From positions 3,038,001 through 3,102,000 of the forward strand of contig NC_092672.1 of the NCBI RefSeq assembly GCF_964355755.1: a stretch of DNA of 64,000 nucleotides, in the 5' to 3' direction. This document shows, one piece after another, positions 1 through 53,270 of the stretch. The position numbers and the translations under genes were made by a program. Source of the DNA: Antedon mediterranea. Taxonomy: Eukaryota > Animalia > Echinodermata. The notes beneath the pieces are model-generated. The model saw only the letters and a program-made list of their open reading frames with translations, had not been told where the DNA came from and ran no database searches. Position 1 is the stretch's first letter, and each line of letters opens with the position of its first letter.

Positions 1-496
1 CGTTGGTTTATTTTAAAATATGCTGTTAGTAGGTTTGCTTAATTTAACTAGGCCTACAGTAGCATAGTTGGTACAATAATACAACAGATTTTTTTCTTTT
101 GCATATGTATACTGAATAAAAAAAAAATAAAAAAAATACAATAGATCCGAAGTAATAAATACAAAATAACACAAATATAAATATCAATAGGCACGACATC
201 ACTTTTATTTAAAGACCATAAGCCTACGTGCCTATTATAAGATACTGTAGTGTCTGATTTCGTCTCGGCAGTATATACAATTCGAATCAAGATGAGTAAA
301 ATTAAAGAAAATCGAGAGAATGAACCAATATTGAAGCAGGACGGTAAGATTAAGTTATACTTACTTAGTTATACGTTGAAGATGAATATCTTTCTTTTAT
401 TTTTCCCATGTATTTATACGATGATTTGAGGACGAATTGTATGCCACGTTGAAGAATAATTCTAGGTTATATCAGGGAAGAGTACATTTCACTCTG

Positions 497-672
497 GTTA
501 ATTTCACTCTTCCCTGATTAATTTCACTCTTCCCTGGTTAATTTCACTCTTCCCTTGTTAATTTCACTCTTCCCTGGTTAATTTCACTCTTCCCTGGTTA
601 ATTTCACTCTTCCCTGGTTAATTTCACTCTTCCCTGGTTAATTTCACTCTTCCCTGGTTAATTTCACTCTTC
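497..672. repeat. 20-bp minisatellite (TTAATTTCACTCTTCCCTGG, ~9 copies) in SLC17 copy 1 intron 1
   Basis: Directly visible period of 20. Confidence 0.95.
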
Positions 673-2131
673 GAATTGACATACCATTGTTACCTTTTAT
701 TTCTATGGTTGAATAATTGTTCTACCATTGTATACTATACAGATGCGAAACCATGGTTGCAAGTTCGATACGTAATGGTCTTTCTGTGTTTCACAGCAAA
801 CACACTGAATTTCATTCTTAGAACAAACTGGAGTATTGCCATTTTACCTATCGTAAGCAACAAATTTGTCTGGATTGTTAGTGTATCAAAATACTAAATC
901 ATGAAATTGAATTAATGAACTATATGAAAATAATAAATATTTGACATATAACAATAGTAAAATTAAATTCACAATTTAAACACTGATGATTGTAAGTGTT
1001 AATATTGTGTCCAACGGAAACTTACAGTTTTGAGAGAAAAAAAACAATCAACTTTTAAACCTACACTTGGTATATATTACGATATCGTACTTAACTATCA
1101 ACCAAATATTACAGTAAAGTATAATCTATTCGTAAACATGCCGTTAAAAAAAAACTTTTTTTAGGCTAGAGAGTTCAACTGGGAAATCCAAAAGCAACAA
1201 AACATCTTAGCCACATTTTTTATTTCCAATTCATGCTCACCTCTTCTCGGAGGATGGTTGGTTGGAAAATACGGAGGTTTTCGGGTTGTGTTGCTTATGC
1301 TATGATTTCATCATTTACGATGGCACTATTAACTCCGTTTGCTGTTAATACAAGCGTTACTCTATTGATAATCAATAGACTCGTCGATGGTTTCGGACAG
1401 GTAGGCCTAATTTGTTTTTTTTTAAATTGTTGTTTTGCCAAAAGAAAAAAAATAAATTAAAATAGCAGCACTTGTAATCTGTGGTAAAACTGTATGCATT
1501 TGTATACATGTGTCGAAATCAATGATATTATATAGCCAAAGGCTTATTACATCTCTCTGGTAGAAATACATGTATTTATATTCCGCGCGTGCGCGCTCCT
1601 AACATTTGCGATCCGAGTTTTTATTTTTTGTTGTTGTAAACATTAAGGACACACGAAAGTTGTGAGTATAGCTAAATCGTTGTATCTATTATTTTTGCTT
1701 GTTTGTTTGGTCTGTCATCTTTCATTCCCTACAGCAATATAATTTTATCAATGAAATACAGTACATTTAATTTTTGTCAGGGCATGGTGATGACAGGATC
1801 CGTGGGTATTATAAGAAGATGGTCAATATTAGATGAACGCAGTACATTTATATCGATTACAACGTCAGGTAATAATTTAGACCTTGGTGCATTTCCATTT
1901 TTTCCATGCCTCCATGCCAGAAAAGCGGTAATTCTAAAGTTCTGAGGTCGATCAGAAATATGAAATAAAGTAAAACAATGCCATATTATAAAGTAAGAAA
2001 CAGAAAGAGGACATGCGAATGTTTGCATAGGCCTATCATTTGAAAACAAACGTTACATGTTATGTCAAATTCATTTCACTAAAAACAGTAAATGTTATCA
2101 AATCCCATTTTTTTATTTTTTGTTTGCTCGT

Positions 2132-2322
2132 ACAGAGTGAAAATCGTTTCACTCAGAGTGAAAACAGTTTCACGCAGAGTGAAAACCGTTTAACTTTGAG
2201 TGAAAACAATTTCACTCTGAGTGAAAATAGTTTCACTCTGAGTGAAAACAGTTTCACTCTGAGTGAAAAGAGTTTAACTCGGAGTAAAAACAGTTTCACT
2301 CAAAGTGAAAACAGTTTCACTC
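2132..2322. repeat. 21-bp palindromic-unit tandem repeat (CAGAGTGAAAACAGTTTCACT, ~9 copies; 3 copies at 12221-12285)
   Basis: Visible tandem array; it produces the spurious (SENSFTL)n ORF. Confidence 0.9.
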
Positions 2323-2899
2323 TAAACAACGAGCGACCATTTTACTCGTTTACGATAAAGAGTGTAGTTAGTATAGTCAAATTAGTTTTGGACTGTAATT
2401 GCAAATCTATGAAAATATCTTTTTTTTTAGGATATAGTTTTGGGGCCATTTTAGCAATGTACCTGTCTTCGTGGCTTTGCACGTCAACGGAACTGGGAGG
2501 CTGGCCAACTACATTTTATTCATTTGGTATGATAAGAACAATGATACTTTTTTGTACTTTTATGAAAATCTCATTTATATCACATGTGGTGCCTGTATCA
2601 TGTAAAGTTAAGTTAAGGGTTAGGTTACTACTAGATACACGTGAAACACATGTGATGTTGTATTACCAAATATTCCTATGATACTAATTCATTTTATTTT
2701 TATTGTTTTAAAATCTTAAATAGAGTGAATTTCTGTCAGTGGCTCCCCACGCTGTGTTTTGTATTACAATCATCATTGGGGGATTGGCTTCAGACTATAT
2801 CATTTCTCACTCGATGCTGAGCGTAACAAACACGAGAAAATTAATTTATGCTCTTCGTAAGTATAAGTACAACTTTATATGTACTGTATTTTGAGGAAA

Positions 2900-3068
2900 G
2901 TGACCAAATATGGTAGTGATATGTCCAAATATGGTAGTGATATGTCCAAATATGGTAGTGATATGTCCAAATATGGTAGTGATTATGTCCAAATATGGTA
3001 GTGATATGTCCAAATATGGTAGTGATATGCTCAAATAATGTCACGTAATGTTTGATAATGTAGACAGA
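2900..3068. mobile_element. Partial MITE of the GCTCTGTCTACACTATCAAA family with internal 21-bp repeats (CCAAATATGGTAGTGATATGT)n
   Basis: Ends in TTTGATAATGTAGACAGAG; related copies at 13151-13290, ~14000-14148, ~26580-26658 and ~30369-30540. Confidence 0.75.
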
Positions 3069-3807
3069 GTAACGCGTATATTATGATTTAATAACCGTGT
3101 TTTTTTTTATGTTTTATTTTTAGCTCTCGGATTATCCGCATTTTTAGTTGTTTTAACTGGTTATATTGAAAACAAAGTAATCAACGTCATTTTGTTGACT
3201 ATCGTACTTGGGTTTTATGGACCGATGGCTGGTACAGTCGGGGCTAATGCAATAGATTTGGCGCCAAATCATTCTAGTCTGATTGTTGGAATAGCGTATA
3301 CATTTTCTACAACACCTGGGTTTATTTCTCCAATGGTAGCCGGAGTAATAACAAAAAAGTAAGTAAGTAACAATTTCCAATATCATTAATATTGTGTGCA
3401 CAATTTACCTTACGGCTTTTTTGTTTTGGGCTCTAAATTTGACCGCGAACAATGACTAAAGGCCTAGCCAATTATAACATCTCATTTTTTACGCTAAATA
3501 GTAATGACAATTAATAAAGTTTTTTTATAAAAGATGTATTATCCCGCAAAAACATGAAAAATAAAGATTAATTTAAAAAGACTTTGAATAGACCATTTCG
3601 CAATAATAATGTTAATCACTTCCGTGGAAAAAGAATGTACACAACTGTGCTTTCACGGATAAAAAGAAAAAAAAAACGGTTAAATTACAGTTTTTTCAAG
3701 TAAAATTTTTTTTTTCGATCCAATTAAAAATGACACTGCTTCATCAAAAATATTTTAAAACAAATATTTTTTCAGGGGGACAATAAAATAGTGATAATTA
3801 GATATAA

Positions 3808-5371
3808 CTAGATGGCACGCTCGCTTCGCTCGCGTACCATCTCGGTCGTGCCCACAGATGGTTCTCGAATACACAGTATTTCCAGCGAGAAAAAAATGGA
3901 GATTTCAAATGTACGTACCGCAGGACTATAATACATTGTCGTTTACAGAAACGAATAAATATACACAATGATTTATGTAGTCAACCAAAATTAGCACCCT
4001 GGGAATTACTTCCGAGAGAGAAACAAAATGAGTCAAATTTTTTTATTTGGACTCATTTAAACAAACCCAATTTGTGTTTTGTATGTAACATTAAGGGTTG
4101 AGGGATGGGGGAAGAAGATAGGTACAAAGAGGAAACATTTTAAAATATATTCTTATCCACTCAGTAACGAAATATTGTTTTTAATGTTTTATAGGCCTAT
4201 AAATAATATACCACTAAATACAGTAAAACATTTACGATTTAATACGGTACTTTGTTAAAACTCTCACTGTCATAGTCGATTGAAATAGTAAAGTACATGT
4301 AACGATACACCACTACGACGTTTATATATTTTTAAATTATTAATTAATACAAACGTTGAGAAGCAACTGTCAGTAATAACGTTTATTTATTTCTATATTA
4401 TATGTTTATAATCTAACACTAGGGCCTACCCACACTCACAGTAATAAAGTTTATTTGTATATATTTTTATATTACATCTAACAGTACCAACACTCACAGT
4501 AAGAAATTTGCGATTCAAATTGCGATCAAAAGTGGTTAATACCTTAACAGTATTGTACAGCATTGCAATACTATTTATGTTTATTCTCCAAGGGGGCCCA
4601 TAAATCTAAATCTAAATCTATACCTCTATGGTTAAACCAAATAATTTGGAATGTTTATTTGTATATTATATGTTTATAATCTAACAGTAGGGCCTACCCA
4701 CACTCACAGTAATAAAGTTTATTTGTATATATTTTTATATTACATCTAACAGTACCAACACTCACAGTAAGAAATTTGCGATTCAAATTGCGATCAAAAG
4801 TGGTTAATACCTTAACAGTATTGTACAGCATTGCAATACTATTTATGTTTATTCTCCAAGGGGGCCCATAAATCTAAAGCTATACCTGTATGTTTAAACC
4901 AAATAATTTGGAATGTTCCATTCATCACAAATCAATACATTTGTAAAAACGTATATTAAATGTATCAAAATAGTATTTTTTAAAGAAAATCGGCCTGTCT
5001 TCAACATTATGATGCTGTACTCGAACTGTTCAACCGGTTTTCAGCTATTAAAAACAATTATCGTAGGAGGAGATAGGAAAATGCGAAGCCTCCTCGCATT
5101 TTTGTGGCGGGTATTTTTCAAGATGGACATCCATTAGACAGTGTATACCACGATCGGAAAACACCCCTATTTGGGGCAAATCGTTGAACCTAAATTCGTT
5201 TTAATCGTCAATAACTAATTATCTAACTTAATTTAATTAGTAAACAGGGTTACATCAGGTGGTTAAAATCAGTACCGAAAGTACGAACCAACTTTATATA
5301 CCATCGAGTAAAAATTCTAGAAGTAAGGCGCGATTTACCGAATTTTGCCCTTACGTAAATTTATATATAGA
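3808..5371 (-). mobile_element. Non-autonomous Helitron, 1564 bp
   Basis: On the minus strand it starts TC and ends CTAG, with a GC-rich 3' hairpin (GATGGTACGC...GCGTGCCATC). It sits between A and T with no TSD; the empty site is visible in SLC17 copy 2 at ~14880. It contains a ~270-bp internal tandem duplication (~4380-4915). Confidence 0.9.
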
Positions 5372-7766
5372 TTTTTACATAAAATTGAAAAAGTTTTAAG
5401 AATAACGATATAATCAACTGAAAACTATTGTTTTTTTCTTTTGTAACGTTAGTTCTTGTATTGTATTCCTATTCTTTAATAAAATAAAATATTTTATGAA
5501 TCTGTTAATTCAACTGATTGTTTTTTCAGAACACAATATATCAATGGCGAATAATATTCTGTATAGTAGCTGGACTTCATATCATTGGGATAGTTTCTTT
5601 TGTAATGTTTGGAAGTGGAGAGATACAGCACTGGGCAAAATCAAGCGAAAATAACGCAGAATCAGTACCATTCACATCATTAGAAAATAAAGAAAGTGAT
5701 GATTGAAACAAAAACAAACCAAGATTCACGAATCGAATGTTTAACTCCATTTATAAGATGAGAAATATACACCTTTGATAACGAGTGACAGGCCGACTGA
5801 CTATTGACTATAGTAGGCCTAATTTAGACCTATCGTCGCTAACAGTAAATCTAAAGTATAAAGATAATATTTGTCCTCAAGCTTAACTGGAAACTGAGGA
5901 AAATTCGGATTAGGTCCTCCACGGACCCACGGCAGCCAACACTGTAACGTCTACCATATCAGCACACCGGATTGTATTTATTATTAACAATTGTTTTTAT
6001 TTGAATTATTTTAACTTATTAAAATAATTTTCCGACAAATACACAATCATCAGCTAAATTCAGTCCTACTTTTTTTTAAACATCTCTGTGAAGCTCTGCT
6101 ATACACTATAAAACTAGTGCTACTAGCTGTTACTGCTGTTATTCATTAATCATTAACAGTGGCGCGTATGATGGGCTGTATCCGCATAATTTTGGTTGGA
6201 TATGATTTGTTTTTAATATTATTATATTTATATTAATAAGAAATTCTGTTTCATACCGGTTATACCGCCTAGTGTTGTTGGTGAATGGAGTGCGCGTCAC
6301 AGTGGATTAATCGTTATAGAATTACTGCAGCTCAAATTTGAAGAAAAAAAAGGCCTACTTGTTTTAAACTACCGCCATTTTATTCATGTAATGGCATGTA
6401 ATTCGTTTAATGCGCATGTCTGATGATATGCCATGTTTTGAGGCTACTTAGAGATAAACATACAATAGAGGTAAGGACGAGACGCAACGTGTGCGAGTTG
6501 ACCAATGACAAGCGACAGTTCAAATAATCCATCGCTTGTGATTGGTCAAATCATCATTGTGTTTCTACAGTAGTGGGACTAAGCTGAATATAATGTAAGT
6601 GCGATCGTGATTTACGGTATTAACTTTAAAAAGAAATGACCACTCACTAAATACAATACAGGTAAGTTCTACAAAAGACATAGAGTATAATACTGTACGA
6701 ATGTATAGAAAGTTATAATCATTTGACTTAAGTAGGATCCGTTGTTTCAATTAAGATCGTCTCAATCTTCCCTTCTGATTTATCAAGGTCACCTCTTAAT
6801 TTTGTTGTGTGGGTTTCTTTTCTAATTTAATAACTTGCACGATTTACATTTTTAGACCCATGTACAGCATTTAGTTTATTTACAGTTACTTGCATATAAA
6901 AAAAGGAGAAAAATCTATTCAAAATCAGTAATTCTGTTAATAAAATACATTCATGGAATGCTCCGGTGTAAGTGTATTTTTAAACATGATACATGAGTTT
7001 TTACAGATTGACTTATTTAATTCTCACTATTTTTATTTTGTAGAGTATATAGAGCAAAAATGAGCATAGCTTATTCTTTATGTTGCATTCTCAACAAAAA
7101 ACTTCAAAAGAACAGTTCCTATTATTAACATTTTAATTTCTAAATATATATTTAACATATATAATATTTATATTTTATTTGAATGGGTGTTAGCTTATTA
7201 AAATTATATTATTCATGTTAATGTCCATCTGTATAAAATATCGTTGGAACAAAAACACCCAGCCCTCTCATTTCATTTTCGTAATGAAAACCAAACATAC
7301 TGGACCCGACTGTTTTATTTTGAGGTCTAATAGCTGAATTCCGCTACTTGACAACCTTAACAACTCGGTGGTTGATGTTATATACCAAATTAGAAAGTAA
7401 GTGTTTTCTCTCGATTGTTGTTCGATTTTAACCCAACTGTAAGTTCATTGGTTTATTTAACTTAATATGCGGACATTGCTGTTAGTAGGCTTTGTTTTAT
7501 TTAACTACAATAGCATAGTTGGTACAATAATACAATAGGTCCGAAGTAATAAATACAAAATAACACAAATTCAATTTAAATATCAATAGGTCCTATACAA
7601 TACGACATCACTATAGAAAGACCATAAGCCTACGTGCCTATTATAAGATACTGTAGTGTCTGATTTCGTCTCGGAACTATATACAATTCGAATCGTTGAA
7701 CAAGATGCGTAAAATTAAAGAAAATCGAGAGAATGAACCAATACTGAAACAGGACGGTAAGATTAA

Positions 7767-8354
7767 AGGTCAGGTGCGGGCAACAATTATTTATTGATCA
7801 TACATTCTAATAATTATTGATCTATAGTTTCCCCTATGTTTCATAATTTTTGGGATTTTATTTGTGTTACACGAGCTTCTTGAAAATAAGCACTTTCTTA
7901 TCATAGTTAAAATTACACAGTAAAATCTCTATTCTTTTGTTGTACACAAATTTTGTAAATAGAGAGGCATTTTAAAAAGCTATGAAAACTAAACGGTGTG
8001 GTAAAAAATGTTATCAGATGACTAAATATAGGTAATATAACTTGAATATTACATATCTGGTATTTTTATTCAACTTCAGATTTTTATTTTCATGCTATAG
8101 CAAAAATTATCCACCGTATATACACCATCTTTTTTCACCTTCTAGGGAGTCACCAGACATGTTATTACATTAGGTTACCTACCTAACTACTGGACAAAAG
8201 TCTTTCTGGTTTTTATGGAAGAATTTTGCCAAATTTTGTATTTGACCATATTAAGGGAAATTCATGTTTTTTCATCTTGATTTCTGTTACAAATATTTGA
8301 TTTATGTACAATTAACCATATATTATATTTAAAATTCATGCCTGTACCTGAGCT
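7767..8354. mobile_element. MITE with TTAA TSD and AG...CT ends (Kolobok-type)
   Basis: Imperfect TIR AGGTCAGGTGCGGGC / GCCTGTACCTGAGCT; TTAA at 7763-7766 and 8355-8358; empty site in copy 1 at ~350. Confidence 0.85.
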
Positions 8355-8476
8355 TTAAGTTATACTTAGCAGTAAATTGTTGAAGATGAATATCTTTCTT
8401 TTTATTTTTCCCATGTATTTATACGATGATTTGAGAACGAATTTTATGCCACGTTGAAGAATAATTCTAGGTTATA

Positions 8477-9394
8477 TCAGGGAAGAGTACATTTCACTTA
8501 GTTCACTCTTTTCTGGTTAATTTCAATCTTCCTTGGTTAATTTCACTCTTCCTTGGTAAATTTCACTCTTCCTTGGTAAATTTCACTCTTCCTTGGTTAA
8601 TTTCACTCTTCCTTGGTTAATTTCACTCTTCCCTTGTTAATTTCACTCTTCCCTGGTTAATTTACTCTTCCCTGGTTAATTTCACTCTTCGCTGGTTAAT
8701 TTCACTCTTCCTTGGTTAATTTCACTCTTCCTTGGTTAATTTCACTCTTACTTGGTTAATTTCGCTCTTCTTTGGTTAATTTCATTCTTCCTTTGTTAAT
8801 TTCACTCTTCCTTTGTTAATTTCACTCTTCCTTTGTTAATTTCACTCTTCCTTGGTTAATTTAACTCTTCCTTTGTTAATTTCACTCTTCCTTGGTTAAT
8901 TTCACTTTTCCTTGGCTAATTTCACTCTTCCCTGGTTAATTTCACTCTTCCCTGGTTAATTTCACTCTTCACTGGTTAATTTCACTCTTCCCTGGTTAAT
9001 TTCACTCTTCCCTGGTTAATTTCACTTTTCCCTTGTTAATTTCACTCTCCACTGGTTAATTTCACTCTTCCCTGGTTAATTTCACTCTTCCTTGGTTAAT
9101 TTCACTCTTCCCTGTTAATTTCATTCTTCCCTGGTTAATTTCACTCTTACCTTGTTAATTTCACTCTTACCTTGTTAATTTCACTCTTCCCTGGTTAATT
9201 TCACTCTTCCTTGGTTAATTTCACTCTTCCCTGTTAATTTCACTCTTCCCTGGTTAATTTCACTCTTCCCTGGTTAATTTCACTCTTACCTTGTTAATTT
9301 CACTCTTCCCTGGTTAATTTCACTCTTCCTTGGTTAATTATCACTCTTCCCTGGTTAATTTCACTCTTCCCTGGTTAATTTCACTCTTCCCTGG
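8477..9394. repeat. Same 20-bp minisatellite, ~44 copies, inside a TCAGGGAAGAG...CTCTTCCCTGG hairpin element flanked by TTATA direct repeats
   Basis: Period 20; TTATA at 8472-8476 and 9395-9399; the element start is the reverse complement of the unit end. Confidence 0.9.
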
Positions 9395-9454
9395 TTATAT
9401 CGATAATATTGCAAAACTTTGATTTAGAAACAAGCAAGACGGTATATAATTATT

Positions 9455-10196: not shown

Positions 10197-10396
10197 GGCC
10201 GTGTTTCCACAGCCAAAACAAAATTATCGGTTCAGTTCAAAGGTTAAACATTATCGCATTATTTTATGCGATAATTATCCGATTTGAATGAGATAATTAT
10301 CGGTTAATTTTTTGCGAGTGGAATCGGTTAAACCCCGTTTCCACAGGCAGTTTATCGGTTAATTATCGGTTAATTTTTGGCTGCAGAAACACGGCC
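10197..10396. mobile_element. 200-bp MITE with GGCC...GGCC termini (PIF/Harbinger-like)
   Basis: TIR GGCCGTGTTTCCACAGCCAAAA / TTTTGGCTGCAGAAACACGGCC; flanks TTA / ATA. Confidence 0.75.
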
Positions 10397-11201
10397 ATAT
10401 TGTCACAACATAATAAACATAATCATTTTCGTGGTATAATGATTACCGTAATATAAGGATCTATCCTAGCTTAATCAATTATCCATTGTATCTATCCCTG
10501 GGTCATTTTGAGACAAAGCTCACTTGAACTTCTAGACAACCCACCTATATTCTCATATGTATTATAATAATCACTATTATTATCGAATTGACTAACCATT
10601 GTTACCTTTTATTTCTATGTGATTGAATACATGTTCTACCATTTTGTACATACAGATGCGAAACCGTGGTTACCAGTTCGATACGTCACTGTTTTTCTGT
10701 GTTTCGCAGCAAACACACTGAATAATATTCTCCGAACAAACTGGAGTGTTGCCATTTTACCTATAGTAAGCAACACATTTGAAACTAATTCTGGATTGTT
10801 GTACCGAATTGAAATAATGAACTATGACAATAATAAATATTTGACATATAACTATAGAATTAAATTCACAATTTAATCACTGATTGAATTGTAAGTGTTA
10901 ATAATATAGTTTGTCCGATGGAAACTTAATGTGTTGTGAAAAAGTCAACGTTTAGACGTACCTAGGCCTAATTTAAGATATCGTAGGCCTACTTAAGTAT
11001 CAACAAAATTACAGTAAAGTATAATGTAGATTATTTGTATGAAATGTTTGATGTTTTTAATTAAAGGCCTTTTTGTAAAAAAAATCCTCAATCCAGCTTT
11101 TTGGCTGCTACAGATTTTATTTGCCTTAGTGAATTATTCTTGATGTTCTTTTGAAATTGAAATAAAGATACCAAGATATATATATGGCTTGCCGATCTAT
11201 G

Positions 11202-11202
<1 letters not shown>

Positions 11203-11264: not shown

Positions 11265-13150
11265 CTATTCGTTTAAAAAACTATAACTTTTTTAGGCTAC
11301 AGAGTTCAACTGGAAAATCAAAAAACAACAAACATCTTAGCCACATTTTATATTTCCAATTCATGCTCACCTCTTCTCGGAAGATGGTTGGTTGGAAAAT
11401 ACGGAGGTTTTCCGGTTGTGTTGCTTGCTATGATTTCATCATTTACAATGGCACTATTAACTCCGTTTGCTGTTAATACAAGCGTTATTCTATTGATAAT
11501 CAATAGACTCGTCGATGGTTTCGAACAGGTAGACATAATTTGTTTTTTAAATTGTTGTTTTGCGAAAATAAAAAAGCAAAAATTAAAATAGCAGCACTTG
11601 TAATCTCTGGTAAAACTGTATTTATTATTGTAACATTTTGCAGTCCGATTTTTTTATATTTTTTATAAACATTAAGGACACACGAAAGTTGTGAGTATAG
11701 CTAAATCGTTGTATCTATTATTTTTGCTTGTTTGTTAGGTCTGTCATCTTTCATTCCCTACAGCAATATAATTTTATCAATGAAATAACTAACATAATTT
11801 AGGGCATGGTGATGACAGGATCCGTGGGTATTATAAGAAGATGGTCAATATTAGATGAACGCAGTACATTTATATCGATTACAACCTCAGGTAATAATTT
11901 AGACCTTGGTGCATTTCCATTTTTTACATGCCAGTAAAATGGTAATTTTAAAGTTCTGAGGTCGATCAGAAATATGAAATAAAGTAAACAATGCCATATA
12001 CATGGCTGTAGTCGCCTGCTCAAATTTTAGTTATAGTGTTTACCGACCGACCGACCAACCGACCGACATAGTGACCTGTAGTAAAAACAGAAAGAGGATA
12101 TGCGAATTTTTGTATATCATTTGAAAACAATCATGTCAAATTTATACCACTAAAAACAGTAAATGTTATTAAATTCCATTTGTTTAGGCCTACTATTTTT
12201 TTACTCTCTTTTTGCTCGTTCAGAGTGAAAACCGTTTCACTCAGAGTGAAAACAGTTTCACTCAAAGTGAAAACAGTTTCACTCTAAACAACGTCATTGT
12301 ACAATTCATGTCTTTTAAAAAATAATTCTTTAGATATTTTTAACTGTAATTTTTCTCAATTTAAATGTATTATTAATGAAATTATTTAACTTTTCTTTTT
12401 CATTTGTATATACTTATATTGGCTCATATTTTATAGTTTAGTTTTTATTTTCAACCTGTTATTGGTGTTTTACACTGTTGGTTTGATATAAAGAATAAAT
12501 AATGAATTTATTTTCAGTTAAATCTAAACGAGCGACCATTTTACTCGTTTACGATAAAGAGTGTAGTTAGTATAGTCAAATTAGTTTTGGACTGAAATTA
12601 CCAATCTATGAAATAACTTTTTTTTAGGATATAGTTTTGGGGCCATTTTAGCAATGTACCTGTCTTCGTGGCTTTGCACGTCAACGGAACTGGGAGGCTG
12701 GCCAACTACATTTTATTCATTTGGTATGATAAGAACAATGATACTTTTTTGTACTTTTATGAAAATGTATCTCCATCATTTGTTATATAACATTGTATTA
12801 ATATAAATAAAATATAAACTTGTATTTTACAAATTCAATGCATTATATAAAAATAACATGGAGTATCAAAAATATAAAATAATATTGATGTGTATTGTTT
12901 TTTTTTAATGTAGTGTACAATAATGAATATTATATTAAATTCAGCAATTAATATTAATGTATTTTGTTAAGGTATTACTACCATTATTTGGTGTTTGTTG
13001 TGGTGTATTATTGCATCTAGCTAGTGAACCAACTGACAATCGATGGATATCAACATTTGAAAAAGAAACGTTATTATGTCAATCAACAATGAAAGAAAGT
13101 GAAAAGGTTTTGTACATGTTTGTATTTCATGTTTTAATTATTGTATTAAG

Positions 13151-37500: not shown

Positions 37501-40500
37501 AATTAAAGTACATTATTACAGAGTTTTGTTTTTTTTGCAGAAATCAAAGTTATGTGTATAGAAAGCAGTACTCGTATTAAAAACTAAGCAGGTTGCAGGT
37601 CTTGAATGCAAACTGGCAGGATATTTTGAATATTTTTTGTTGTTTAAATGATGGAATCCTAACTTCAGTTTCCACGAACTGGAGACGAAGACATATTATG
37701 ACCCTTTTATTTAAATTTATTTGAATAGACCTCCATGTAAAGTCATTAAAGGCTACATGATTGTTTTATATTTTAATATGTGATAGTAGGAAATCATTGT
37801 GTATAATGAGGACTATGAATCTGATATTTACTTGCATTCTTATCTTTTTAAAATATTATTTATAATGCCGGTAATGAGTTTAAAATTTAATTATATTGAC
37901 TATTTTTGATAATCATCATGTCCTTATAAATTCATTTATACTTTTTTTGTGTAATATAGTTCATATATTATGTATTAAATAAATTGGTAAGGCCCTATAC
38001 TGTTATTATTTAAGGAAAGTTTATATACACTATTATTTTATGCCTACCAATATTAGTATTAATTGTTTATGTAAATATTTTGTCTAATTGCCTTGATTTT
38101 TGTATAGGCCAATGGCATCAATGTTTTTCTCAAAGCAAATTAGCCTAATAATGCCACATTTAGACACATGATTCATTGATTTCTGATATTCTGTACTTGT
38201 GTGTATGCATTACTAAAATAGTAGTTAATATATTTCATTTATAATGTATGTATAAACATATATTCATATTTTTTTAAACATTTTTAAATTTAAAAATTAT
38301 TACAATACCTATCTACCTTTCTGATATTGTTACTATTATATAATATTCTTTGAGGCAGCAATAAAAAAAAAATTAGAACAATTAATTTGACTTATACTGT
38401 ACTATGTTAGTTCAGGAGATGAAGTGTGTGTGGGCAGAAACTAGTGTGTTGGAGGTTGGTGGTGTGAGGTGTATAGTAGTCACTTTAAGACCTAAATTAG
38501 ATGTTTTCTGAAGAAAAGAAGTAAGCGCATACGCTTTCAAACAACTCCAAGAAGATTCACACAAAAATAATTACTTTCCAATAAAGTAGTATAACCAGGG
38601 AAGAGTTAACTCTTTCCTGGTATAACAGTGTATATTACAGTACATTGAATAAACTCGAGCGGAATAATAACGCACATAAAAAAACATTCATTTTCTTTTC
38701 GAAAAGTGCCCTCTCTAGTTTTCTATTAATTTATTAATAATTGTTATTAATTAATGAGTAATATGAACATACATATTAACATTTAATGCTGGAAACTATA
38801 TCTACTCCTAACAAAGTTTCATATCTCCAAATTTCATTAACGTATTCAAAGCACTTCAATAAATTACATTTAACAATTACAAATTCAAGTTTTGGATATA
38901 ATTTTGCTTAAAAACATATACAAAAAACATCGATAAAAAATACTTTTCGTATTCAAAAACATTTGATACTTGGTATAAATGTTCAATATAGGTTGCTCCA
39001 TCCATATTGCAAACAAAAAATAACTATCAAGCCATATCACTGATTTTTTAAATTTACGTTTTTACAAAATGTACACTTATGAAAGACCATACAATTCCCA
39101 CTCATTTTTTTCAAGCTAATAACTATTTTGAAAAAACAACCAACAAAAAACGTTCATGAATGCAATTTTCTTCTGTGAATAGAGCAACCTATAGTGAACA
39201 TTTATACCAAGTATCAAATGTTTTTGAATACGAAAAGTATTTTTTATCGATGGTTTTTGTATATGTTTTTAAGCCAAAGTCTATCCAAAACCCGAATTTT
39301 TATGTTAAATGTGATATTTAATATTGAAGTGCTTTGAATACGTTAATGAAATTTAGAGATATGAAACTTTGTTAGGAGTAGAACCAGCTTCCAGCATTGA
39401 ATGTTAAAAATATGTTCATATTACTCATTAATTAATAATAATAATAATATTAATAATAATAAATTAATAGAAAACTAGAGAGGGCACTTTTCGAAAAGAA
39501 AATGAATGTTTTTTTATGTGCGTTATTATTCCGCTCGAGTTTATTCAATGTACTGTAATATACACTGTTATACTACTTTATTGGAAAGTAATTATTTTTG
39601 TGTGAATCTTCTTGGAGTTGTTTGAAAGCGTATGCGCTTACTTCTTTTCTTCAGAAAACATCTAATTTAGGTCTTAAAGTGACTACTATACACCTCACAC
39701 AACCAACCTCCAACACACTAGTTTCTGCCCACACACACTTCATCTCCTGAACTAACATAGTACAGTATAAGTCAAATTAATTGTTCTAATTTTTTTTTTT
39801 ATTGCTGCCTCAAAGAATATTATATAATAGTAACAATATCAGAAAGGTAGATAGGTATTGTAATAATTTTTAAATTTAAAAATGTTAAATAAAAATATGA
39901 ATATATGTTTATACATACATTATAAATGAAATATATTAACTACTATTTTAGTAATGCATACACACAAGTACAGAATATCAGAAATCAATGAATCATGTGT
40001 CTAAATGTGGCATTATTAGGCTAATTTGCTTTGAGAAAAACATTGATGCCATTGGCCTATACAAAAATCAAGGCAATTAGACAAAATATTTACATAAACA
40101 ATTAATACTAATATTGGTAGGCATAAAATAATAGTGTATATAAACTTTCCTTAAATAATAACAGTATAGGGCCTTACCAATTTATTTAATACATAATATA
40201 TGAACTATATTACACATAAAAAGTATAAATGAATTTATAAGGACATGATGATTATCAAAAATAGTCAATATCATTAAATTTTAAACTCATTACCGGCATT
40301 ATAAATAATATTTTAAAAAGATAAGAATGCAAGTAAATATCAGATTCATAGTCCTCATTATACACAATGATTTCCTACTATCACATATTAAAATATAAAA
40401 CAATCATGTAGCCTTTAATGACTTTACATGGAGGTCTATTCAAATAAATTTAAATAAAAGGGTCATAATATGTCTTTGTCTCCAGTTCGTGGAAATTGAA

Positions 40501-43500
40501 GTTAGGATTCTGGACATCATTTCAACAACAAAAAATATTCAAAATATCCTGCCAGTTCGCATTCAAGACCTGCAACCTGCTTAGTTTTTAATACGAGTAC
40601 TGCTTTCTATACACATAACTTTGATTTCTGCAAAAAAAACAAAACTCTGTAATAATGTACTTTAATTACTGTAATAATCTAGGTATAGATTATGTTGACC
40701 GGGCCAGTGAGAGTGCGATCGACTGTACTACCATAAGTCCTGTAGGTGTATACAACTTATTTCTTGTCTACAAAGTGTATAGTAGTATGCTAATAGTACT
40801 ATTATTAGATTAGGTAGTTGGGAGTAGTTTGGAGAGATACATCTATCTATAAAAGAGTACTGTATATATGGAACTATCTGTGTTAGCCGCCTTTGTATTT
40901 TTAGATATAATACCAATAGGTACTATGTATTGGGAAACAATTCAACAGTTATGAATAAAAAAAGTCCTATGTACTCTGTATGTTGGAGGAAATAAGCATA
41001 AGAGCAAATAAAGCCTTGACCACAGGGTGTAAGTCACTATTTTGAATCAGTAGTATGACTTCTTAAGAAGTAATTTAAAAATTATCATTGTATGATCAAA
41101 AAGAAATATTATAATATCTAACTTTCTCCTTTATATAAATATATTATTTTATCCAAGGGGTTGTAAACACAAGTGTTCACATGTCTTGTTAAGTATTGCA
41201 CCTTTGTCCTGTCTTTATGTTTTCTGTAATGTCACTGCACTAACGGGTGACCGGTAAACGAGCTTCGCTCTTACGGTTATCCATCCATAAGTTGTTCATC
41301 TCTTATGTTCAGAAATTGAAATGGTAAATAAACTGAAACTGAAACTGTGCTTATGTGGTACAAGTTGACGAGCCAGGAATGATGGTAGTGCCAGTATACC
41401 GTGTAGTTTAGCCTCAAGGCAATACCATGTACCGTAGCTGGAGTAGCTTGGACAAATACAGTAGAGATTTATGAGACTTGGTGTGTGATGATTCAGTATG
41501 ATAAATTTGTGCTGTGAAAGACAAAATTGTAGAATTAGGAAGAAAATATTGTAAAATATAACAAGGAAATTATACTATAGTATAATTAAGGGGTAACCGT
41601 ATAATACATAATTAATAGTAATAATGGCAATTACTTATATTATGTATAAATTACAATATTACAAATAAATTCATATATTATTTTATTATAAGGAAATCTG
41701 TTTTAGAATGAGAAAAAGCCGTCCCAACACAGATTTGAACCCAGCTATCAATAAAGCTATAAAACAAAATAGACCATATTGTAGCCGGACTGGGTAGCGT
41801 AGACTTACTTGAGGCCTAGGCATAGTACGATTAGCTAGAAGGATACAGGTCAACCCGTAGTCCGTACCCATGCCATGCCAACACGCTCGTACCCAAATTT
41901 TGGTTTACATATATCCAAAATGTTGGCTTACTCCTACCCATCATGGGCTGCCTAGTAGTAGTAGTAGTAGTAGTAGTAGTAGCCTAGCCTAAGGCAGCAG
42001 GCCCGGCCCTAGCCTACTACAACTTAAGTCTAGGCCTAGCCTAGTAGGCCTCTAGGCCTAGCCTAGGCCCTAGTAGTTAACATCATACATACGCCCTAGA
42101 GCCTAGTAGTAGCTACCTACTACTCACTAGCTAGGCCTAGGTAGTAGCAGTAGTAGTTATTGTAGTAGTATTATTGTACTGTAGTATTAGTTGTAGCTGT
42201 CCGGTGATCCTTGGTCACTTGTCTAGATCCCCTAGTAGGCCTAGGCTAGGCCTAGTACGTAGTTATTCTTCAACAGTCACACAATTCAGATTCTGCCGGC
42301 CGCTGATTGCTAGTGAACAGGGGGAGGGAGAGAAAGAGTTAGAAGAACTGAAATAAGCCGTGACGTATAATAAACATCATACAAAATAATAATATAACTA
42401 ACGAATCCGTATAATATAATAATGTTGTATGTTATAAAGTAAAGTAAATGCGTTTAATATAATACAATTATATTATAATATAATGTATTTTATTAATAAT
42501 ATAATACTAAATGTTCATAATATAATGCTAAAACCAAATAATATAATACAAAAAGTCAATAATTTGTTACATTTTTCACATAATATATTAGAAATAGATA
42601 TAATATAATGCTAAAACCAAGTAATATAATGCAAAACGTATAATTCATTACAATACAATATATAATATAATAAAAAATTGATATAATAATATAATATTTT
42701 GAATACTTCAGACAGCTGAGGCTTGCCATAATTTTGCTCTCAATTGTTAGTTTTTTTAATATTAATAATTGTCTTTTAATTTTTGTTCTTATTATTTTAT
42801 TATTAAAACAGGGCAAGTGGCGACCAGTAATGAAGGGCAAGGAATGTCAAAAGAGGTTAAATCAGAAACAGGTTAGTTGCTTTCAGAATAATAATATTTT
42901 ATACAAAATCCTTTTTGATGTTTAATTCAAATTATAAACCACATGTAGAACCATATAATAATTAGGAAGCTTCATTGTTTTAAAAACAAAATGTTGTTAA
43001 CATCATAAATAAGTAAGATTCGAATTACACACATTATTATTCTTTGAGATCCAATAAGCTTAATTCTAATCCGCATTGCAAAGTTTGTTTACTGAATACA
43101 AATAAAAAAAGGTCAACTAAAAAGTTAGATTTTCAGAGTAAATATTTCTGTTTTATTAGTATTTTATATACACTAAAACTCCAAACGGTACGGCTCTCTG
43201 AAAATTGTTATTGTTCTGTGTGCTGCCCTCTGTTGAGCATATTTCGACAGCGCCTGATGGATTAAAAATTGTATTTTCCGCCCTCTATTCAGATTCAGAT
43301 TAGATAAGATCTTTGATTCAGATAATAATAATAACCATGTTAACACCATTAGTCATGTATTCTTTAACTCTTTTCACGAAATAACAAAGAATAAAATACT
43401 TATATCAATATTATTGCAAACTTGTGTTTCAAACAGCAGCTCCACGGAAATTAATTTAGGATAAATGGCAAGGTTTTAAATTAAATTAATTCGTACACGT

Positions 43501-46500
43501 GCAATATTTCATTTTAAATAAAGCAAATGAAATATTTTCAACTTTAACTTTCATATTAAAAAATGTGAAGACTATAATTTTTTGGTGCAATTTCTATTAT
43601 CTCTGTTTATTTGAAAACATTTTCATTTTTTATAGTACAATTAAATTTTTATTTCACCTACAAAAAAAAAGGAATTAATACACATGCGTGCTACAGACGG
43701 TAATGTCGTAAACCGTTAATGTATAACCTCCAGCTAACTAATGTAGAATGGTCATTATGTAGTAACAAATTGCCTCACAGCTAATGTAGTACTTTACTAT
43801 CGCTAACTAATGTAGAATGGTCATTATAGTAACGAATTGCCTCACAGCTAATGTAGTAGGCCTACTTTACTATCGCTAGCAAATGTAGTATTAAATATTA
43901 TATATTTTACAAAACCATTAATGCATTAAAAACATGAGATGAGTAGTAGTAATTAGTACGGTCTTTATTTAAATGTATATTTAATTTCACTTTCTATGGA
44001 CCAGAGACTCCGAAATAAAAGATTGAATAAATAATAAAATCACATCGTCTTAAGTTTAATTTTACTCATTTAATTATAATTAATTTTAAAATAAAATGTC
44101 TTCATAAAATAATTGATGAGATTTTGTAAACAAAATTGAAAAATAGTAATTCACCATAATATTTCATGTACTGTAGTTACAACCATCTTTGTTCAAAACA
44201 TTGTTTAAAGTTTCTGATTAATGATAATTTTCTGTTTGCCGCCTTCTATAATCCCTTTATTTTCATAGATACAGCATTAATTAAGACCTATAAATGCACA
44301 AAAAAATGTGATTAAAACGTAGAGAATTGTGAATTCAGTTTCAATCATAAAAATCTTAAGCAACAAATAGCCTTTTAACCTAATAACATACATATGGTAT
44401 TTAAAAATATCAACATGTCACACCCTGGGTCGTGTATCCTACTCTTAACGATAAAAGAATAAAATACGTAAAATCAATTTTTTGTATTGCAAACGTGTGT
44501 TTACAACAGCAGCTCCACGATAATTACCAGTTAATTTAGGATAAATAGCAAGGTTTAAATTAAATTAATTCGAACACAAGTGCAATATTTCAATTTTGAA
44601 TAAAGCAAAAAAATGTATTTACAATTTTAACTTTTCCTATTGAAATTAAATGTCAAAACTATCACTTTTAACTCAATTTCTATTATATCTGTTATTTGTT
44701 ATTGCTTTCGTATTAAGAACAAAAGTTGTACTGAGATGCCTGAAAAATCTTTAATTTGTTTTACTACTGTACAACTCATTTTTTATTTCAACTACAAAAA
44801 AAAAAAAAATTAATATATGCGTGTTACAACGCTAATGTCGTAAACAGTGAAATATCAGCTTTAGTAAAAACCTCCAGCTAGCTACTAATATTGAAACATC
44901 AACAGCTTATGTAGTAAATAAAAAAAAAAAAAACAACATCTACTGTAGTTATTGGAGTAACAAAATTTCCTCATAGCTAATGTAGTTGCTATGGAGACAG
45001 CTGGAGGTTTTAGCATAAGCTGTGTATTGCTCTACATTAAACGGTTGTTACGATTTGCTGGCGACCACCAGTTGTTTAATCATGGAGGTACAGTATAAAA
45101 TAATAATAATATTTTATACCTCCATGATTTAACCGAGTTTTATTTCTGATTGATAATAAATTGTGTTTGTCGCCCTCTATATTATTTACTTGGTTTACTA
45201 CTTCGGCGCGGCTCCAGCACTTCTTATTGTATTACAATACTAGAAATTACAAGGCCCTTATTAAATAAAATAAATTTATTTTACTAAAATATTGTTTTTG
45301 CCATTTTTCTTCTCATCTAGACAAGATTGAAGAATATCTGCTTCAAAGACAAAAGAAATTGTGCAGCCAGGCCAGTAGATTTACACCAGCAACAATGCGT
45401 GATAGATACAATGTTGACATTTCACAGATGTTCACGGATTTGGAACTACGCAAAGAAGCTAAAAATAATAAAGGCTGCAAACCAACAACATTAACAGAAG
45501 TGATAGATGTTATCAGTTCCAAACCTGGATGTAGAGCTCTTATTGATGGGGAGGGTGGGATAGGTAAAACTACCATATTAAGGCATTTAGCATACAATTG
45601 GGCTACGGCTACTCAATCAATTAAATCATTTAAAGGTAAAATTGTATTTCTTTTAAGTTTACGGGATTTAGATAAAGATGAAGACATCATTGATTTAGTT
45701 GTAAAGCAAATTGATATGAAAGAGTTTAGCAGGCACACAAAACTTCCACGAAATTCAGAGTTAATTCAAGATTTTCTAATAACCAATGCCGATAAATTGG
45801 TATTTTTCTTAGACGGATTAGACGAATTGCGATTTAATAATCAAAGCGTAATTCGTCTTTTCAAAAAGACCAACCTAGAAGAAAGTACCGTGATACTTAC
45901 TTCACGATCAGAAAACATAGACAAATTCGTAAAAGAGAGTAACGTACATGTAAGAGTTAATGGATTTAATAACAAGAGCATAGGAAAGTATATTGACAAA
46001 CATTTTGAGTATTTTGAAAAACCAGAATTGGAAAAATCCCTTAAAAAGGAATTAGATATTGACACGCATCTTGAAACAGTTAGGCCTACGTGGATGATGC
46101 AGCGTATTAGAATGCGTCGCTTAAGCGAGGGAGAGCGAAAACATCCTGAAGCGTATGCAATGTGCAAAAACCCGATGCTACTTCTTTCACTCTGTATATT
46201 GTGGGAAGATCATCAAAGTCTCCCCGAAGATAAAACTGACCTCTTCAAAGAACTCTTTCGTAGTATTTTGAATCAGTTCAATAAACGAGAAAACATAACA
46301 AAGATTTCTGAATTTGAAAAAACACCAGTGAAGTATGTAAATGCTATGATTTTATTAGGGAAATGTATGTATGATAGCTTAAAAGTAAACCAACTTTCAA
46401 TAAACAAAACGGATTTGACTAAACATTCGAACAAAGCTATGGTTGATACGGCCTTAAAACTCGGGTTCGTTTATGAAGACGCACAAATTTCAAAATCAAA

Positions 46501-47329
46501 TTTTGATAACATTTTTATGCCTCCTCACAAATTGATAGTAGAGTCATTGGTGGGATTTTACTTGTGCAAATTATGTGAAAGTGAAGGTATGGAGAATGAG
46601 TGCTCAGATGTACGAACATTACTTACACCATTGGATGATGATGAGTGGGAGGTGATACGAGAGAGTAAGCATTTATACAGAGCGAGAGAGTTTGCAATTG
46701 GTTTCCTTGGTGATAAAGCTGGCGGTTTCCTCAAGCACTGGGTTACAAATAGTTTGTCAACATATCGCTATCTGCCGAGAAATTTTAACTTTGTTAAAAA
46801 ACAACATAAAGATACTGTGGTAAATGAATTAATTAATCACATGACAAGCAAAGATTTAGAAATAAATAATCATTTGGATGATATATCTACCTCCATAAGA
46901 ATGTTTATTGATTACATTAGTCCACGTGTACAATGTGACGGGCATTTCATACGTCTAATTATGCAATTGTATTGTATGCAATATGATTGGCATAGTGCCA
47001 GTGTCTTTTGTAGTAAGATGGCATTGGAGCGAAAGGGAAGAGTTATTGCACACATTTTAGGCATTCAAGATAAATGTGACGATGTTGTGATTCTGAATCT
47101 ATCACGTGATGTATTTCATGACTTTGTATCAGAATGTTCTCACAAACAAGTTCAATTAGCATTACGTGATCTCCATATCTCTCGTAGTAACCTTCACAAC
47201 CTTGATGTTAATTCATTGTCTTCATTACTCATTATGTGTCCTAAGCTGGAATACCTTGACATGAGGGATTGCATTCTATCAGCTGACGACATTCGTCACG
47301 TGTCTGAAAAGTGTTCATTTTTTCATTAG
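34553..47329 (+). CDS. NLR1: tandem death-effector-like domains, two linker micro-exons, NACHT and ~2 LRRs, 882 aa
   Basis: Exons 34553-34562, 34657-35163, 35346-35408, 42812-42871, 45321-47329, all joined in phase 1, 2649 nt in frame. Walker A GEGGIGKTT, Walker B FFLDGLDEL, VILTSR, CKNPMLL, F..PHKLIVE; LRR-like LRDLHISRSNL and LEYLDMRDCIL. Confidence 0.85.
35441..42730. mobile_element. 7.29-kb foldback element: ~3.55-kb inverted arms, ~183-bp spacer, no ORF
   Basis: TATGGCAAGCCTCAGCTGTC... / ...GACAGCTGAGGCTTGCCATA; arms 35441-38998 and 39182-42730; ATTTTG direct repeats at 35435-35440 and 42731-42736; empty site ATAATTTTGCTCTCAAT in paralogous introns at ~60043 and ~61403. Confidence 0.95.
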
Positions 47330-48571: not shown

Positions 48572-50325
<1,754 letters not shown>

Positions 50326-51059
50326 TGAGGTCACCTACGTTAATTAGGCCTAGTAGTAGACTCTAAACTAGATACTTCCCTCCTCCGACTCTCCAGAGTT
50401 GTTGTTTGTGGGCTAGGGGAGAAAAGAGTGGTACATAACATACACCGAATGCCGGTACACCCTGCTGGCTGGCTGTGTGTGATATTATTGTCACGTTAGT
50501 TAGGTGCCAGGCAGGCACCAGTAGGCCTAGCGTAATACCAAAACAGAAAAAAACTATAAACACCCAGCTTACCTAAGTTTTGTGTCTCTTAGAAGAACAG
50601 GTTAGGCCTACACCTTTTATATTATTCATAAAGGCCGCGCTGTGTGAATTGATACCAAAACCATACCCACCTCCTGCTCTCTACTCCAAACCAAAGAGCG
50701 CCTTCAACGGACAATGAGACCGTACCACCAGTTTTTGAAAAATAATTTATTTTATCAATTTAATTTTTCATCACTATGTCGATGTCAAAATATAACCAAA
50801 TTCGGTTTTTTTTTCTACCCAGAATTTAAATACAATACAACAATAATTGTTTTGTAATAATTGTCGGCGCAGTGACGATGCGATAATGCTGAGTCATCAT
50901 GAGGACGGTGCAAAGATGCCAGTTTTAGCATAAAAACAATATAGCAAAAATATGTAAAAGGTATAAAATGATGAATGCCGACTTGACAAAGGAAGAAAAT
51001 GGAAGAAGAATATGAGAATTGTTTGAAGGTTTTCATGACAAAATCAAAGAATCAGCGCA

Positions 51060-52280
51060 CTTTGATAAATTATTAAAATAAAAACAAATTGTGTCACGAA
51101 TAAAATTCGGAACTACTGTATTTACGGCCATTGGTTTGTTATACACTATTTCTTTACTTCAATTTATAAAATTAAAGCAATAGTACAGTGGATATAGAAC
51201 TTTGACTTTACTTTTGACTGGAAAATAAAAGACGCTAAAGAAAAATTGTGCTGTGTAAATTAGATGATGCGCGCAAACACATAACGGAAGTATAAAAATG
51301 CCAAACTATATTATTTTGGGTGTTTTTCGTTGAGATAAAAAAAAAGTGGACAAAAAAAAATCGAATGAAAAAAACATTGATGCGGAAACACGAATTAAGT
51401 TTATTCATTAACATTTTTATTTTTATTTCACTGGTTTTGATATTTTGCAATTTTTTTGTATGGGAGATTTGTTACGTACTTGCTACTTTTGTAATTAAAG
51501 TGTGGTCTACCAGAAACCTGTGCTCAGCACGGTTTGTCTACCTTAATAATAATTCACATGGCATGATTATTAAGTATAATAAAAGCGTACTTTTCCCGGC
51601 CACGATATTTCTTTTCTTACATAATTTGGGGACCCCTCATGAGACGTCACAAAATTAACATGAATATTCATTAATCATTTTTCCTAAGCTACGTTAGAAA
51701 TGAGCTAACAATTCGCTAATACAAAGGTTTTCTGTCGGACTTGTCGATGTATGGGGTTCGAATCCAATGAGCAAGTTCCTTTTACTGTATAGTGAGAGTA
51801 AGATTATAGAGGGTTAGATTTAGTTATACTGTATTTATGAACTTAAGTAGTTTGGCTATCTTTTAAGGGGCCCCAACTTCTGTACGAAATAAAAAAATCG
51901 CTTCCCGGCCTCTGAAAAATTGTTTTTTTTTTTTTAAATTGTCAACTATACAATTCGGAACTATTTACGGCCATTGATTTTGTTATACACGGAGTATTCC
52001 TTTACTTTGAAGTATGTAAGCTACAAAATGAAAGCAATGAGCGGGACAGACTTCTGTCAATCAGTCAGATTAAAACATTTTAATAATGAAGAAGACATTA
52101 AGATATGAAGTATTGGAATAATAACAATGATTACGGACTCAACACCAAAAGTAGTCGAAATTAGATGATGCGTTCGAACACAAACATTTTGGGTGTATTT
52201 TTCGTTGATATTTGATATTTAGCGGAAACATGACACTCATTTTGGATTCGTTTTGTGTGTTTTTTCATGGTTTTTTATAT
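51060..52280. repeat. Diverged local direct duplication (~51100-51440 vs ~51950-52280)
   Basis: Shared blocks AATTCGGAACTA..TTTACGGCCATTG, AAATTAGATGATGCG and GCGGAAACA. Confidence 0.7.
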
Positions 52281-52330
52281 TCCCCTCACCGAAACTTAAA
52301 ATGCTAAATAGCTAAAAAATGAAACATAAC

Positions 52331-53270
52331 ATTCATGCTATTATAAGTTGCATAGTGCAATAGACATATATACATATCTAGAACAAATATTGATATATTA
52401 TAAATATTTAAGAACTGTTGATTTTTATTTACAATTTAGAATGCATAATTATATTCTAAAAATTCATGATAATTACAAAAATATAGCGTAATATATGGAG
52501 GAAGTAAAGCAACCATTTGCGGTAAGATATTGGAACAGTAAATTTGAAATTTCAAGACGATGCAAAACTTGCTGTACTAATGTTTATCAAACAATATGTA
52601 AATAATCGATTTATCAACTCCAGATGTTTAATAAAAAAATAGACAGAATTTTTTTGATTTTTGGATATTTGTATGTATTAGTTACGGACCAAACATTTTA
52701 ATATAAAATACATTGAAAGACATTTAAAATGTTTTATCGGGGTGTTGCATGATATATGTAACATGAATTTATAGCTATACTCTAGATTCTAATTAATACC
52801 TCTCTATGTTGCATGATGATATATGTAACGTGAATTTTGATAAGCAGCAGCTATACTAAATTCTAATTATTATCTGTCTCTCTGGTTTTTAGAATTGATG
52901 GGAGTTTACATAAAATGGTCCAATAGAAATCAGGGAATACCATTTTGAGAGAGTTGATTCTGTATATAGTATATTATTATGTTTGGTTTGTTTATGATCT
53001 CATAAGTTGAGAACCTATGTCTGTTTCTATAGCAACTAAAAATGCATTATCTCTATGGAAATAAACCATGATGTGTACAAACCTCTTAACCGAATCACAG
53101 TGTACCACCGATATGTACATTTTTGCTCATTGATAATTCTGTTTTTATAGTTCATTTTGATACATATCTACTTCTTTCTTTCTGAAATAAAGATACTTAA
53201 AAATAAGTTGTTCATTTGGATTTTTATTATCTCTTTATATCATCTACAGTACAGTATATAAATCACATAT
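52331..53270 (+). repeat. Second copy of the GOLGA3 3' UTR end
   Basis: Direct homology to 30741-31580. Confidence 0.92.

Follow-up and report, generated by a model that had tools for sequence, protein, structure and literature searches.

Why do duplicated segments of one genome differ, again and again, by a few bases enclosed between two TA dinucleotides? This question is raised by a 64-kb stretch of animal DNA from the echinoderm Antedon mediterranea (contig NC_092672.1, positions 3,038,001 to 3,102,000; 32% GC; hereafter the window), in which paralogous copies carry or lack inserts of the form TA-x-TA. We consider that those inserts, with x being CAG/CTG, CCG/CGG, GGCC or GGC/GCC, are very probably germline excision footprints (scars) left by three or more groups of cut-and-paste transposons that target TA and are of the IS630-Tc1-mariner/pogo type.

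Filled and empty copies of the same sites

Each filled site was aligned locally with its partner copy. Results showed a clean gap in 9/9 pairs, the filled copy having a short insert plus a duplicated TA relative to the empty site, exactly where the initial annotation had placed them:

51-56, GGCC-TA insertion (TAGGCCTA at 49-56); empty paralog near 7505
10986-10991, GGCC-TA insertion; empty paralog near 1088
43859-43864, GGCC-TA insertion; lacking in the tandem copy (43776) and in three related copies (44901, 44972, 63240)
15051-15055, CTG-TA insertion; the block is young (1.8% diverged), and its paralog is empty near 5537
51116-51120, CTG-TA insertion; empty paralog near 51963
45091-45095, CAG-TA insertion within a single hairpin-repeat arm; common to a duplicate at 63428, missing in five other arms (45117-, 63456-, 30190, 31780, 4621-)
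41432-41436, CCG-TA insertion; it lies in an arm of the young (1.3% diverged) 3.5-kb inverted duplication, whose other arm, aligned on the minus strand, is empty near 36731
53252-53256, CAG-TA insertion beside a TACAGTA already present; ambiguous, as it can equally be read as a tandem duplication of 5 bp
14166-14169, CG-TA insertion; perfect 4-bp tandem duplication of a class that is not enriched (likely slippage)

The first alternative to consider is that slippage or tandem duplication makes the inserts, the words being amplified in (TAG/CTA)n low-complexity tracts. The pairs at 14166 and 53252 speak for it, as both inserts perfectly copy the adjacent bases and are indistinguishable from slippage, whereas in the other 7/9 pairs the insert has no template in the adjacent flank. 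Moreover, a few identical spacers recur in unrelated flanks, which also argues against slippage. The TA targets of the three GGCC scars are CTAC, GTAC and GTAC, with the 2-bp TA duplicated.

Extra copies reveal the polarity of insertion at two sites, 45091, where five arms are without the insert, and 43859, where four related copies are without it. The initial annotation had described the 45091 CAG-TA as absent from the opposite hairpin arm and from 30190; 30190 is one of those five arms. When four public runs were placed on 14200-28700, no scar was present among the 12 indel rows listed, in which high-copy repeats dominated.

Probable scars among small indels

The indel tally covered 26 paralog blocks (12,877 columns), hand-picked from self-BLAST and padded to include the sites of the initial annotation, with a flank filter that the 45091 pair failed, so that this pair was left out. 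Ninety-three indels passed, and seven of them were TA plus core (GGCC three times, CTG twice, CGG once, and CAG once in the tandem case), which corresponds to 7/18 indels of 5-6 bp and 7/93 of all sizes. Three of the seven six-bp indels were GGCC, while the null is 0.28% per random deletion (p=8e-7); among five-bp indels, 4/11 were CWG/CSG with a null of 0.86% (p=2e-6), or 3/11 once the tandem case is set aside (p=1e-4). An unsupervised BLAST tally gave 4/71 scars, and 4/11 at 5-6 bp. Footprints had been called a major small-indel class in the initial annotation; this stands within the 5-6 bp indels, and does not stand for indels overall in either tally. The same blocks hold 645 substitutions against 7 scars, that is ~1 scar per 90 substitutions, and two scars lie in blocks only 1.3% and 1.8% diverged, suggesting that the process was recently active.

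These numbers also bear on a second alternative, in which the filled words are ancestral, as selected protein-binding motifs or repeat-derived sequence, and the empty sites are microhomology deletions between two TA. The GGCC clusters near gene starts would suit it, as would a slightly higher local CpG observed/expected ratio at GGCC sites (0.92 vs 0.75, p=0.03, n=17) and the fact that extra copies give polarity at just two of the nine sites. Against it, the insert is missing in the five arms and the four related copies mentioned above, a random deletion would remove TA plus core in <1% of 5-6 bp events compared with the 7/18 observed, and scars are also found within transposons and duplicated introns, which are unlikely to be under selection. 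We therefore regard ancestral words as a very unlikely explanation.

Enrichment of the scar words

Over the whole window, TAGGCCTA occurs at 31 sites, compared with a mean of 0.42 and a maximum of 3 in dinucleotide shuffles (0/100 reach the count), and it is the top 8-mer by z-score; TACWGTA is found 72 times, compared with 13.3 in shuffles (maximum 24). In a masked test, second repeat copies and six long exons were removed, leaving 40.5 kb, and local 300-bp shuffles were run 100 times. Four kinds of spacer remained in excess, with 0/100 shuffles reaching the count in each case: GGCC (TAGGCCTA), 18 vs 0.4 expected; CAG/CTG (TAC[AT]GTA), 51 vs 9.1; CCG/CGG (TAC[CG]GTA), 11 vs 2.8; and GGC/GCC (TAGGCTA/TAGCCTA), 15 vs 4.1. 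Control spacers were flat (GAG/CTC 5 vs 6.2, CAC/GTG 10 vs 9.4, GAC/GTC 4 vs 6.3). The initial annotation had suggested counting TAGGCCTA, TACAGTA-type and TACGGTA-type words against a background, and the excess of all three is strong. It had also set CG-TA apart as a scar class, which we abandon: the CG spacer (TACGTA) is not enriched in the masked 40.5 kb (9 vs 9.4), nor is the GC spacer (14 vs 11.6), and the only CG-TA pair is a tandem duplication.

The total excess, ~60-80 words in 40 kb, amounts to 1.5-2 per kb of non-coding DNA. Orientations are near balanced (CAG/CTG 36/36, CCG/CGG 7/6, GGC/GCC 12/13), while the order of the bases is strongly asymmetric, with 31 TA-GGCC-TA and 0 TA-CCGG-TA. 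Among the neighbours of the GGCC spacer we counted GGC/GCC 25 times and GGGCC/GGCCC 4 times, and GGGCCC, GGCGCC and CCGG 0 times each. Long exons are depleted, with 1/31 GGCC words (3.8 expected) and 3/72 CWG words (8.9 expected). One-mismatch neighbours of TAGGCCTA number 64 vs 31 expected; these are decayed older copies, and as they reach twice the expectation the process is also old.

The word counts complete the case on slippage. Pure (TAG)n runs occur within TA-G/C-TA chains and their length is unequal between inverted arms, as slippage would produce. When the four CTAG-rich clusters were removed from the masked set, however, GGCC remained at 10, GGC/GCC at 6, CAG/CTG at 50 and CCG/CGG at 11, still far above the shuffle means for GGCC and CWG (0.4 and 9.1, computed with the clusters). 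Slippage is extremely unlikely to explain the inserts as a whole, and we reject it as their common origin, while keeping it for the two ambiguous pairs and for part of the clusters.

How excision would write the words

In the mechanism that we favour, an element would insert at TA and duplicate it, a step established for such elements. We infer that the cuts at excision then fall 2-3 nt within the two ends, so that both flanks keep terminal bases of the element as 3' overhangs, as established for Sleeping Beauty and Tc1, and that end joining retains the overhang bases; all the repair steps have this same standing. With CAG...CTG and CCG...CGG ends, pairing of the 3-nt overhangs would leave a single mismatch, the products being TACAGTA/TACTGTA and TACCGTA/TACGGTA. 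With GG...CC ends, the two GG overhangs would be unable to pair, and fill-in would keep both, so that GG+CC gives TAGGCCTA, as CA+TG gives the taCATGta of Tc1. Minor products of a GG-ended excision would be one base shorter or longer, namely GGC, GCC, GGGCC and GGCCC (TAGGCTA/TAGCCTA/TAGGGCCTA). Alternatively, a GGC-ended element with 3-nt overhangs annealing through GC would yield the same words, and the data fit both routes. Each scar would also make two new TA targets, and re-insertion combined with (TAG)n slippage would build TA-G(n)C(m)-TA chains near gene starts.

Candidate donors

For the CAG and CCG classes, known elements offer close models. Canonical Sleeping Beauty footprints are TACAGTA and TACTGTA, derived from 3-nt overhangs, while Tc1/Tc3 overhangs are 2-bp, according to 10.1101/659086. 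The CAG/CTG words of the window are identical to these, in agreement with the initial annotation, which had called this spacer the Sleeping Beauty footprint, and the CCG spacer likewise matches a Passer-type pogo end. In Table S1 of PMC7386202, pogoR elements with CAG ends and TA duplication are present in three echinoderms, and Passer, of the pogo superfamily, has CCGTA ends and TA duplication; Passer footprints are given as 0-4 bp in PMC9976928. The CAG and CCG classes are accounted for by pogoR-type, Passer-type and Sleeping Beauty-type ends and footprints, the insert matching the terminal 2-3 bases of such ends. No Passer copy was found within the 64-kb window.

The GGCC scar most likely comes from a GG-ended, TA-targeting element through fill-in of GG+CC. 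A precedent is the Tc1 footprint taCATGta in C. elegans, as given in PMC3520976 (citing Eide and Anderson 1988). Fot and Fot-like pogo elements have GG(G) ends, most with TAA and some with TA duplication; PMC7386202 gives TA duplication in 50 Fot-like elements and contains an Entamoeba row with GGGGT and TA/TA. We slightly favour a pogo Fot-like element as the GG-ended donor. One potential end in the window, TA|GGGG at 32079, was rejected, having no partner end and lying among CCAAT boxes.

A third alternative assigns the GGCC scar to a PIF/Harbinger-type (PHIS) element with GGC/GGCC ends, leaving CAG and CCG as Tc1/pogo footprints. The obvious candidate is a miniature inverted-repeat transposable element (MITE), the only GG-ended element with terminal inverted repeats (TIRs) found in the window:

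10197-10396, 200-bp MITE with GGCC...GGCC TIRs; flanks TTA/ATA (TWA-like, Harbinger-type); disfavoured as GGCC donor

In addition, PHIS groups usually begin with GG and show TA duplications in one fungal lineage. Against this reading, the flanks of the MITE are of the TWA type, in contrast to the CTAC, GTAC and GTAC targets of the GGCC scars with their 2-bp duplication. The target duplications given in PMC4482050 are TWA for Harbinger and AT for ISL2EU, neither of which is the duplicated TA of the scars. Harbinger-type excision, moreover, usually restores the site. We disfavour PIF/Harbinger and ISL2EU as donors, and the PHIS reading as a whole is unlikely.

A fourth alternative is that an enzyme other than that of a moving transposon writes GG/CC at TA, either a domesticated TA-cutting transposase or untemplated G/C addition in end joining at TA breaks. 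The fact that no donor is seen in the window and the variable G(n)C(m) lengths would agree with it. Three observations argue against it: the CAG and CCG classes are exact known element ends, the strict 2+2 pattern (31 GGCC vs 4 GGGCC/GGCCC and 0 GGGCCC) suits a fixed stagger better than random addition, and GG-ended, TA-flanked MITEs are present in scar-rich animal DNA, as described in the next section. We find this reading quite unlikely.

The GGCC footprint variant was not found in the literature searched, which excluded subscription journals, Repbase Reports and footprint figures, so that it may well have been published elsewhere. Nor did that literature contain footprints treated as a class of indel.

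Scar-rich DNA outside the window

We also examined 120 metagenome loci with three close TAGGCCTA, a sample enriched by construction. Once the matched clusters were masked, 48/120 kept at least 0.4 TAGGCCTA per kb. Among the 50/88 long open reading frames scanned from these loci, RVT, 7tm_1 and SOCS matches were found, suggesting that the loci are animal host DNA, and no transposase was found. Of 184 indels between the loci, ten were non-tandem TA duplications, including GGCC, GGGCC, GCC, GGGTC and CTG.

One TAGGCCTA-rich contig (L082) carries a MITE twice, at 7048-7272 and 8136-8369 (225-234 bp); its ends are GG...CC, and both copies have TA on either side. A donor of the predicted kind is present in scar-rich animal DNA, but in another organism. 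The end of this MITE is absent from the viral contigs. A TAGG...CCTA element in another locus (L035), presumably hAT-like, was ruled out as donor by its 8-bp flanking duplication. Seventeen viral loci with triple TAGGCCTA were also set aside, being mostly local tandem repeats without dispersed scars, and a metagenome scan with a 22-base repeat motif of the window gave 0 matches.

Evidence against excision footprints

Several observations weigh against excision footprints of GG-, CAG- and CCG-ended elements. Polarity is visible at only two of the nine sites, the other seven being two copies only, and no site was found in all three states (element, empty, scar) among the window duplicates; neither these duplicates nor the indel rows listed for the public runs contained an allele with the element at a scar site. 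TACAGTA and TACCGTA are also terminal words of pogoR and Passer, so that element ends could make up some of the word excess, and 8/18 de-duplicated TAGGCCTA sit in low-complexity clusters where slippage also acts. The word with a CATG spacer, TACATGTA, is not enriched in the masked 40.5 kb (1 vs 2.0), suggesting that 2+2 fill-in is not general in this genome. On the donor side, TIR scans of the window gave weak chance-level pairs and no TA-flanked element with convincing CAG, CCG, CGG or GG TIRs; a Pfam scan found no transposase in the window (0/91 short open reading frames, out of 106, the remainder being duplicates, tandem-repeat frames or frames scanned already). For the L082 MITE, which belongs to another organism, neither an empty site nor a match in the window was found. 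Moreover, among the rows listed in PMC7386202, Fot duplications are mostly TAA, not TA.

Chains near gene starts and the setting of the window

The genes of the window include duplicated MFS transporter exons, a PANTS-like gene, a golgin A3-like gene and DED/NACHT genes. Part of the scar words lie in chains where G, C, GC, GG, GCC, GGC or GGCC separates successive TA units, or in looser clusters:

18947-18995, chain of TA units with spacers GC, G, C, GGCC, GG, GCC; located in the PANTS-like gene on the minus strand, in its first intron (ATG 19193, donor 19106)
19724-19821, three TAGGCCTA together with TAGCCTA and TACAGTA; near the divergent promoter, a short way upstream of the golgin A3-like gene's first long exon
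35909-36211, TA-G(n)C(m)-TA chains with five TAGGCCTA; mirrored at 41953-42261 by the inverted duplication
50345-50610, three TAGGCCTA; within or next to a short stretch of the minus strand that resembles an intron

The chain at 18947-18995 is a candidate for nested scars mixed with (TAG)n slippage. For two chains, a small number, the distance to the divergent PANTS-like and golgin gene starts is 100-600 bp, and splice signals suggest that both are in first introns.

In the NACHT exon, an in-frame TAGGCCTA at 46081 was not scored as a scar, as VRPT is common to five close paralogs out of 27 in a length-variable loop, without an exact empty paralog. This loop (46060-46140) belongs to an expanded crinoid NLR family and ranges from 0 to ~29 residues across 27 paralogs. 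An alignment covering 91% of the NACHT protein (45320-47326) shows 100% identity to an Antedon mediterranea protein, and other matches include Anneissia japonica, which marks the window as feather star (crinoid) DNA. It is a tentative idea, on the doubtful side, that an undescribed animal family of GG-ended TA-targeting transposons, often leaving 2+2 fill-in scars and re-targeting them in open chromatin, produces the TA-G(n)C(m)-TA chains in the first introns of housekeeping genes and also adds 6 bp, without loss of frame, to variable loops of proteins.

The 3.5-kb inverted duplication (35441-42730, arms 1.3% diverged, 171-bp spacer) is sited between the DED and NACHT genes. One of its arms contains, at 38589-38626, a 31-bp insertion forming a near-perfect 24-bp hairpin with a 7-bp duplication at its flanks; it resembles the 20-bp satellite unit of 8502-9397 and is possibly a templated insertion or a minimal element.

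Other repeats are present in the window. A 533-bp MITE at 15693-16225 (ends AGATG...CATCT, TTAA duplication), which we take to be Kolobok-like by its ends, has a clean empty site in a paralog near 5202 and is skipped by many public contigs. The 1-kb element of 13149-14148 has TIRs AGCTCTG...CAGAGCT, a TTAA-like context and 21-bp subterminal tandem repeats, with fragments at 2900-3075, 26596-26660 and 30400-30545 and a high copy number in public contigs. The high-copy repeat at 27791-28187 has a tRNA-like head by eye, like a short interspersed element; one contig of run X6 joins 27779 to 28188, the repeat being absent there, and an Rfam search including this repeat gave 0 matches. Two copies of a composite repeat of 1.5-1.8 kb (3808-5372 and 15522-17350), one of which interrupts an MFS transporter paralog, have an end near 3808 with CTAG plus a hairpin, which we take to resemble a Helitron end. 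A nested palindromic element lies at 57948-58326 (46-bp outer arms, 62-bp inner hairpin). Finally, minus-strand exons at 48572-49250 carry a 16-residue motif, presumably of a SNF2/HELLS helicase C-terminus; the last exon has no Pfam match.

Meaning of the probable scars

Footprints are usually studied in reporter assays. The mechanism is a textbook one with a known by-product, which limits the surprise; what stands out here is the unusual density and a GGCC scar type without a named donor. If ~1.5-2 scars per kb of non-coding DNA are real, excisions far outnumber surviving elements, and scar-word counts would estimate past cut-and-paste activity per family. Motif-discovery work in echinoderms and other invertebrates would then wrongly take TAGGCCTA or TACAGTA to be regulatory motifs. 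From the GGCC scar, the terminal sequence of its donor family and the geometry of the cut can be predicted, and should the GG-ended family be real, excision scars would form a mutation class of defined sequence that can be counted (~1% of the substitution rate), and past transposition in invertebrate genomes would be recorded in them directly.

Comparison with known transposons

Fot and Fot-like elements resemble the predicted GGCC donor in their G-rich termini and, in some, the TA duplication; in PMC7386202, the GG-ended rows listed out of 99 GGG matches are from fungi, algae, an oomycete and an amoeba, with no animals among them. Tc1 shares the 2+2 geometry, its taCATGta having two bases per end between the duplicated TA as in TA-GG-CC-TA. 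Its terminal bases are different, and PMC3520976 describes this footprint as rare, whereas here GGCC is the dominant product of its class. For Passer, the terminal three bases equal the CCG/CGG spacer and the target is TA. The closest likeness in the words themselves is with Sleeping Beauty and ZB of the Tc1/mariner group, for which 10.1101/659086 and PMC7913693 give the same 7-bp words, the duplicated TA and equally frequent orientations. The scars of those systems are experimental donor sites, whereas those of the window are natural, fixed or segregating, with ~1 excess copy per kb of non-coding DNA.

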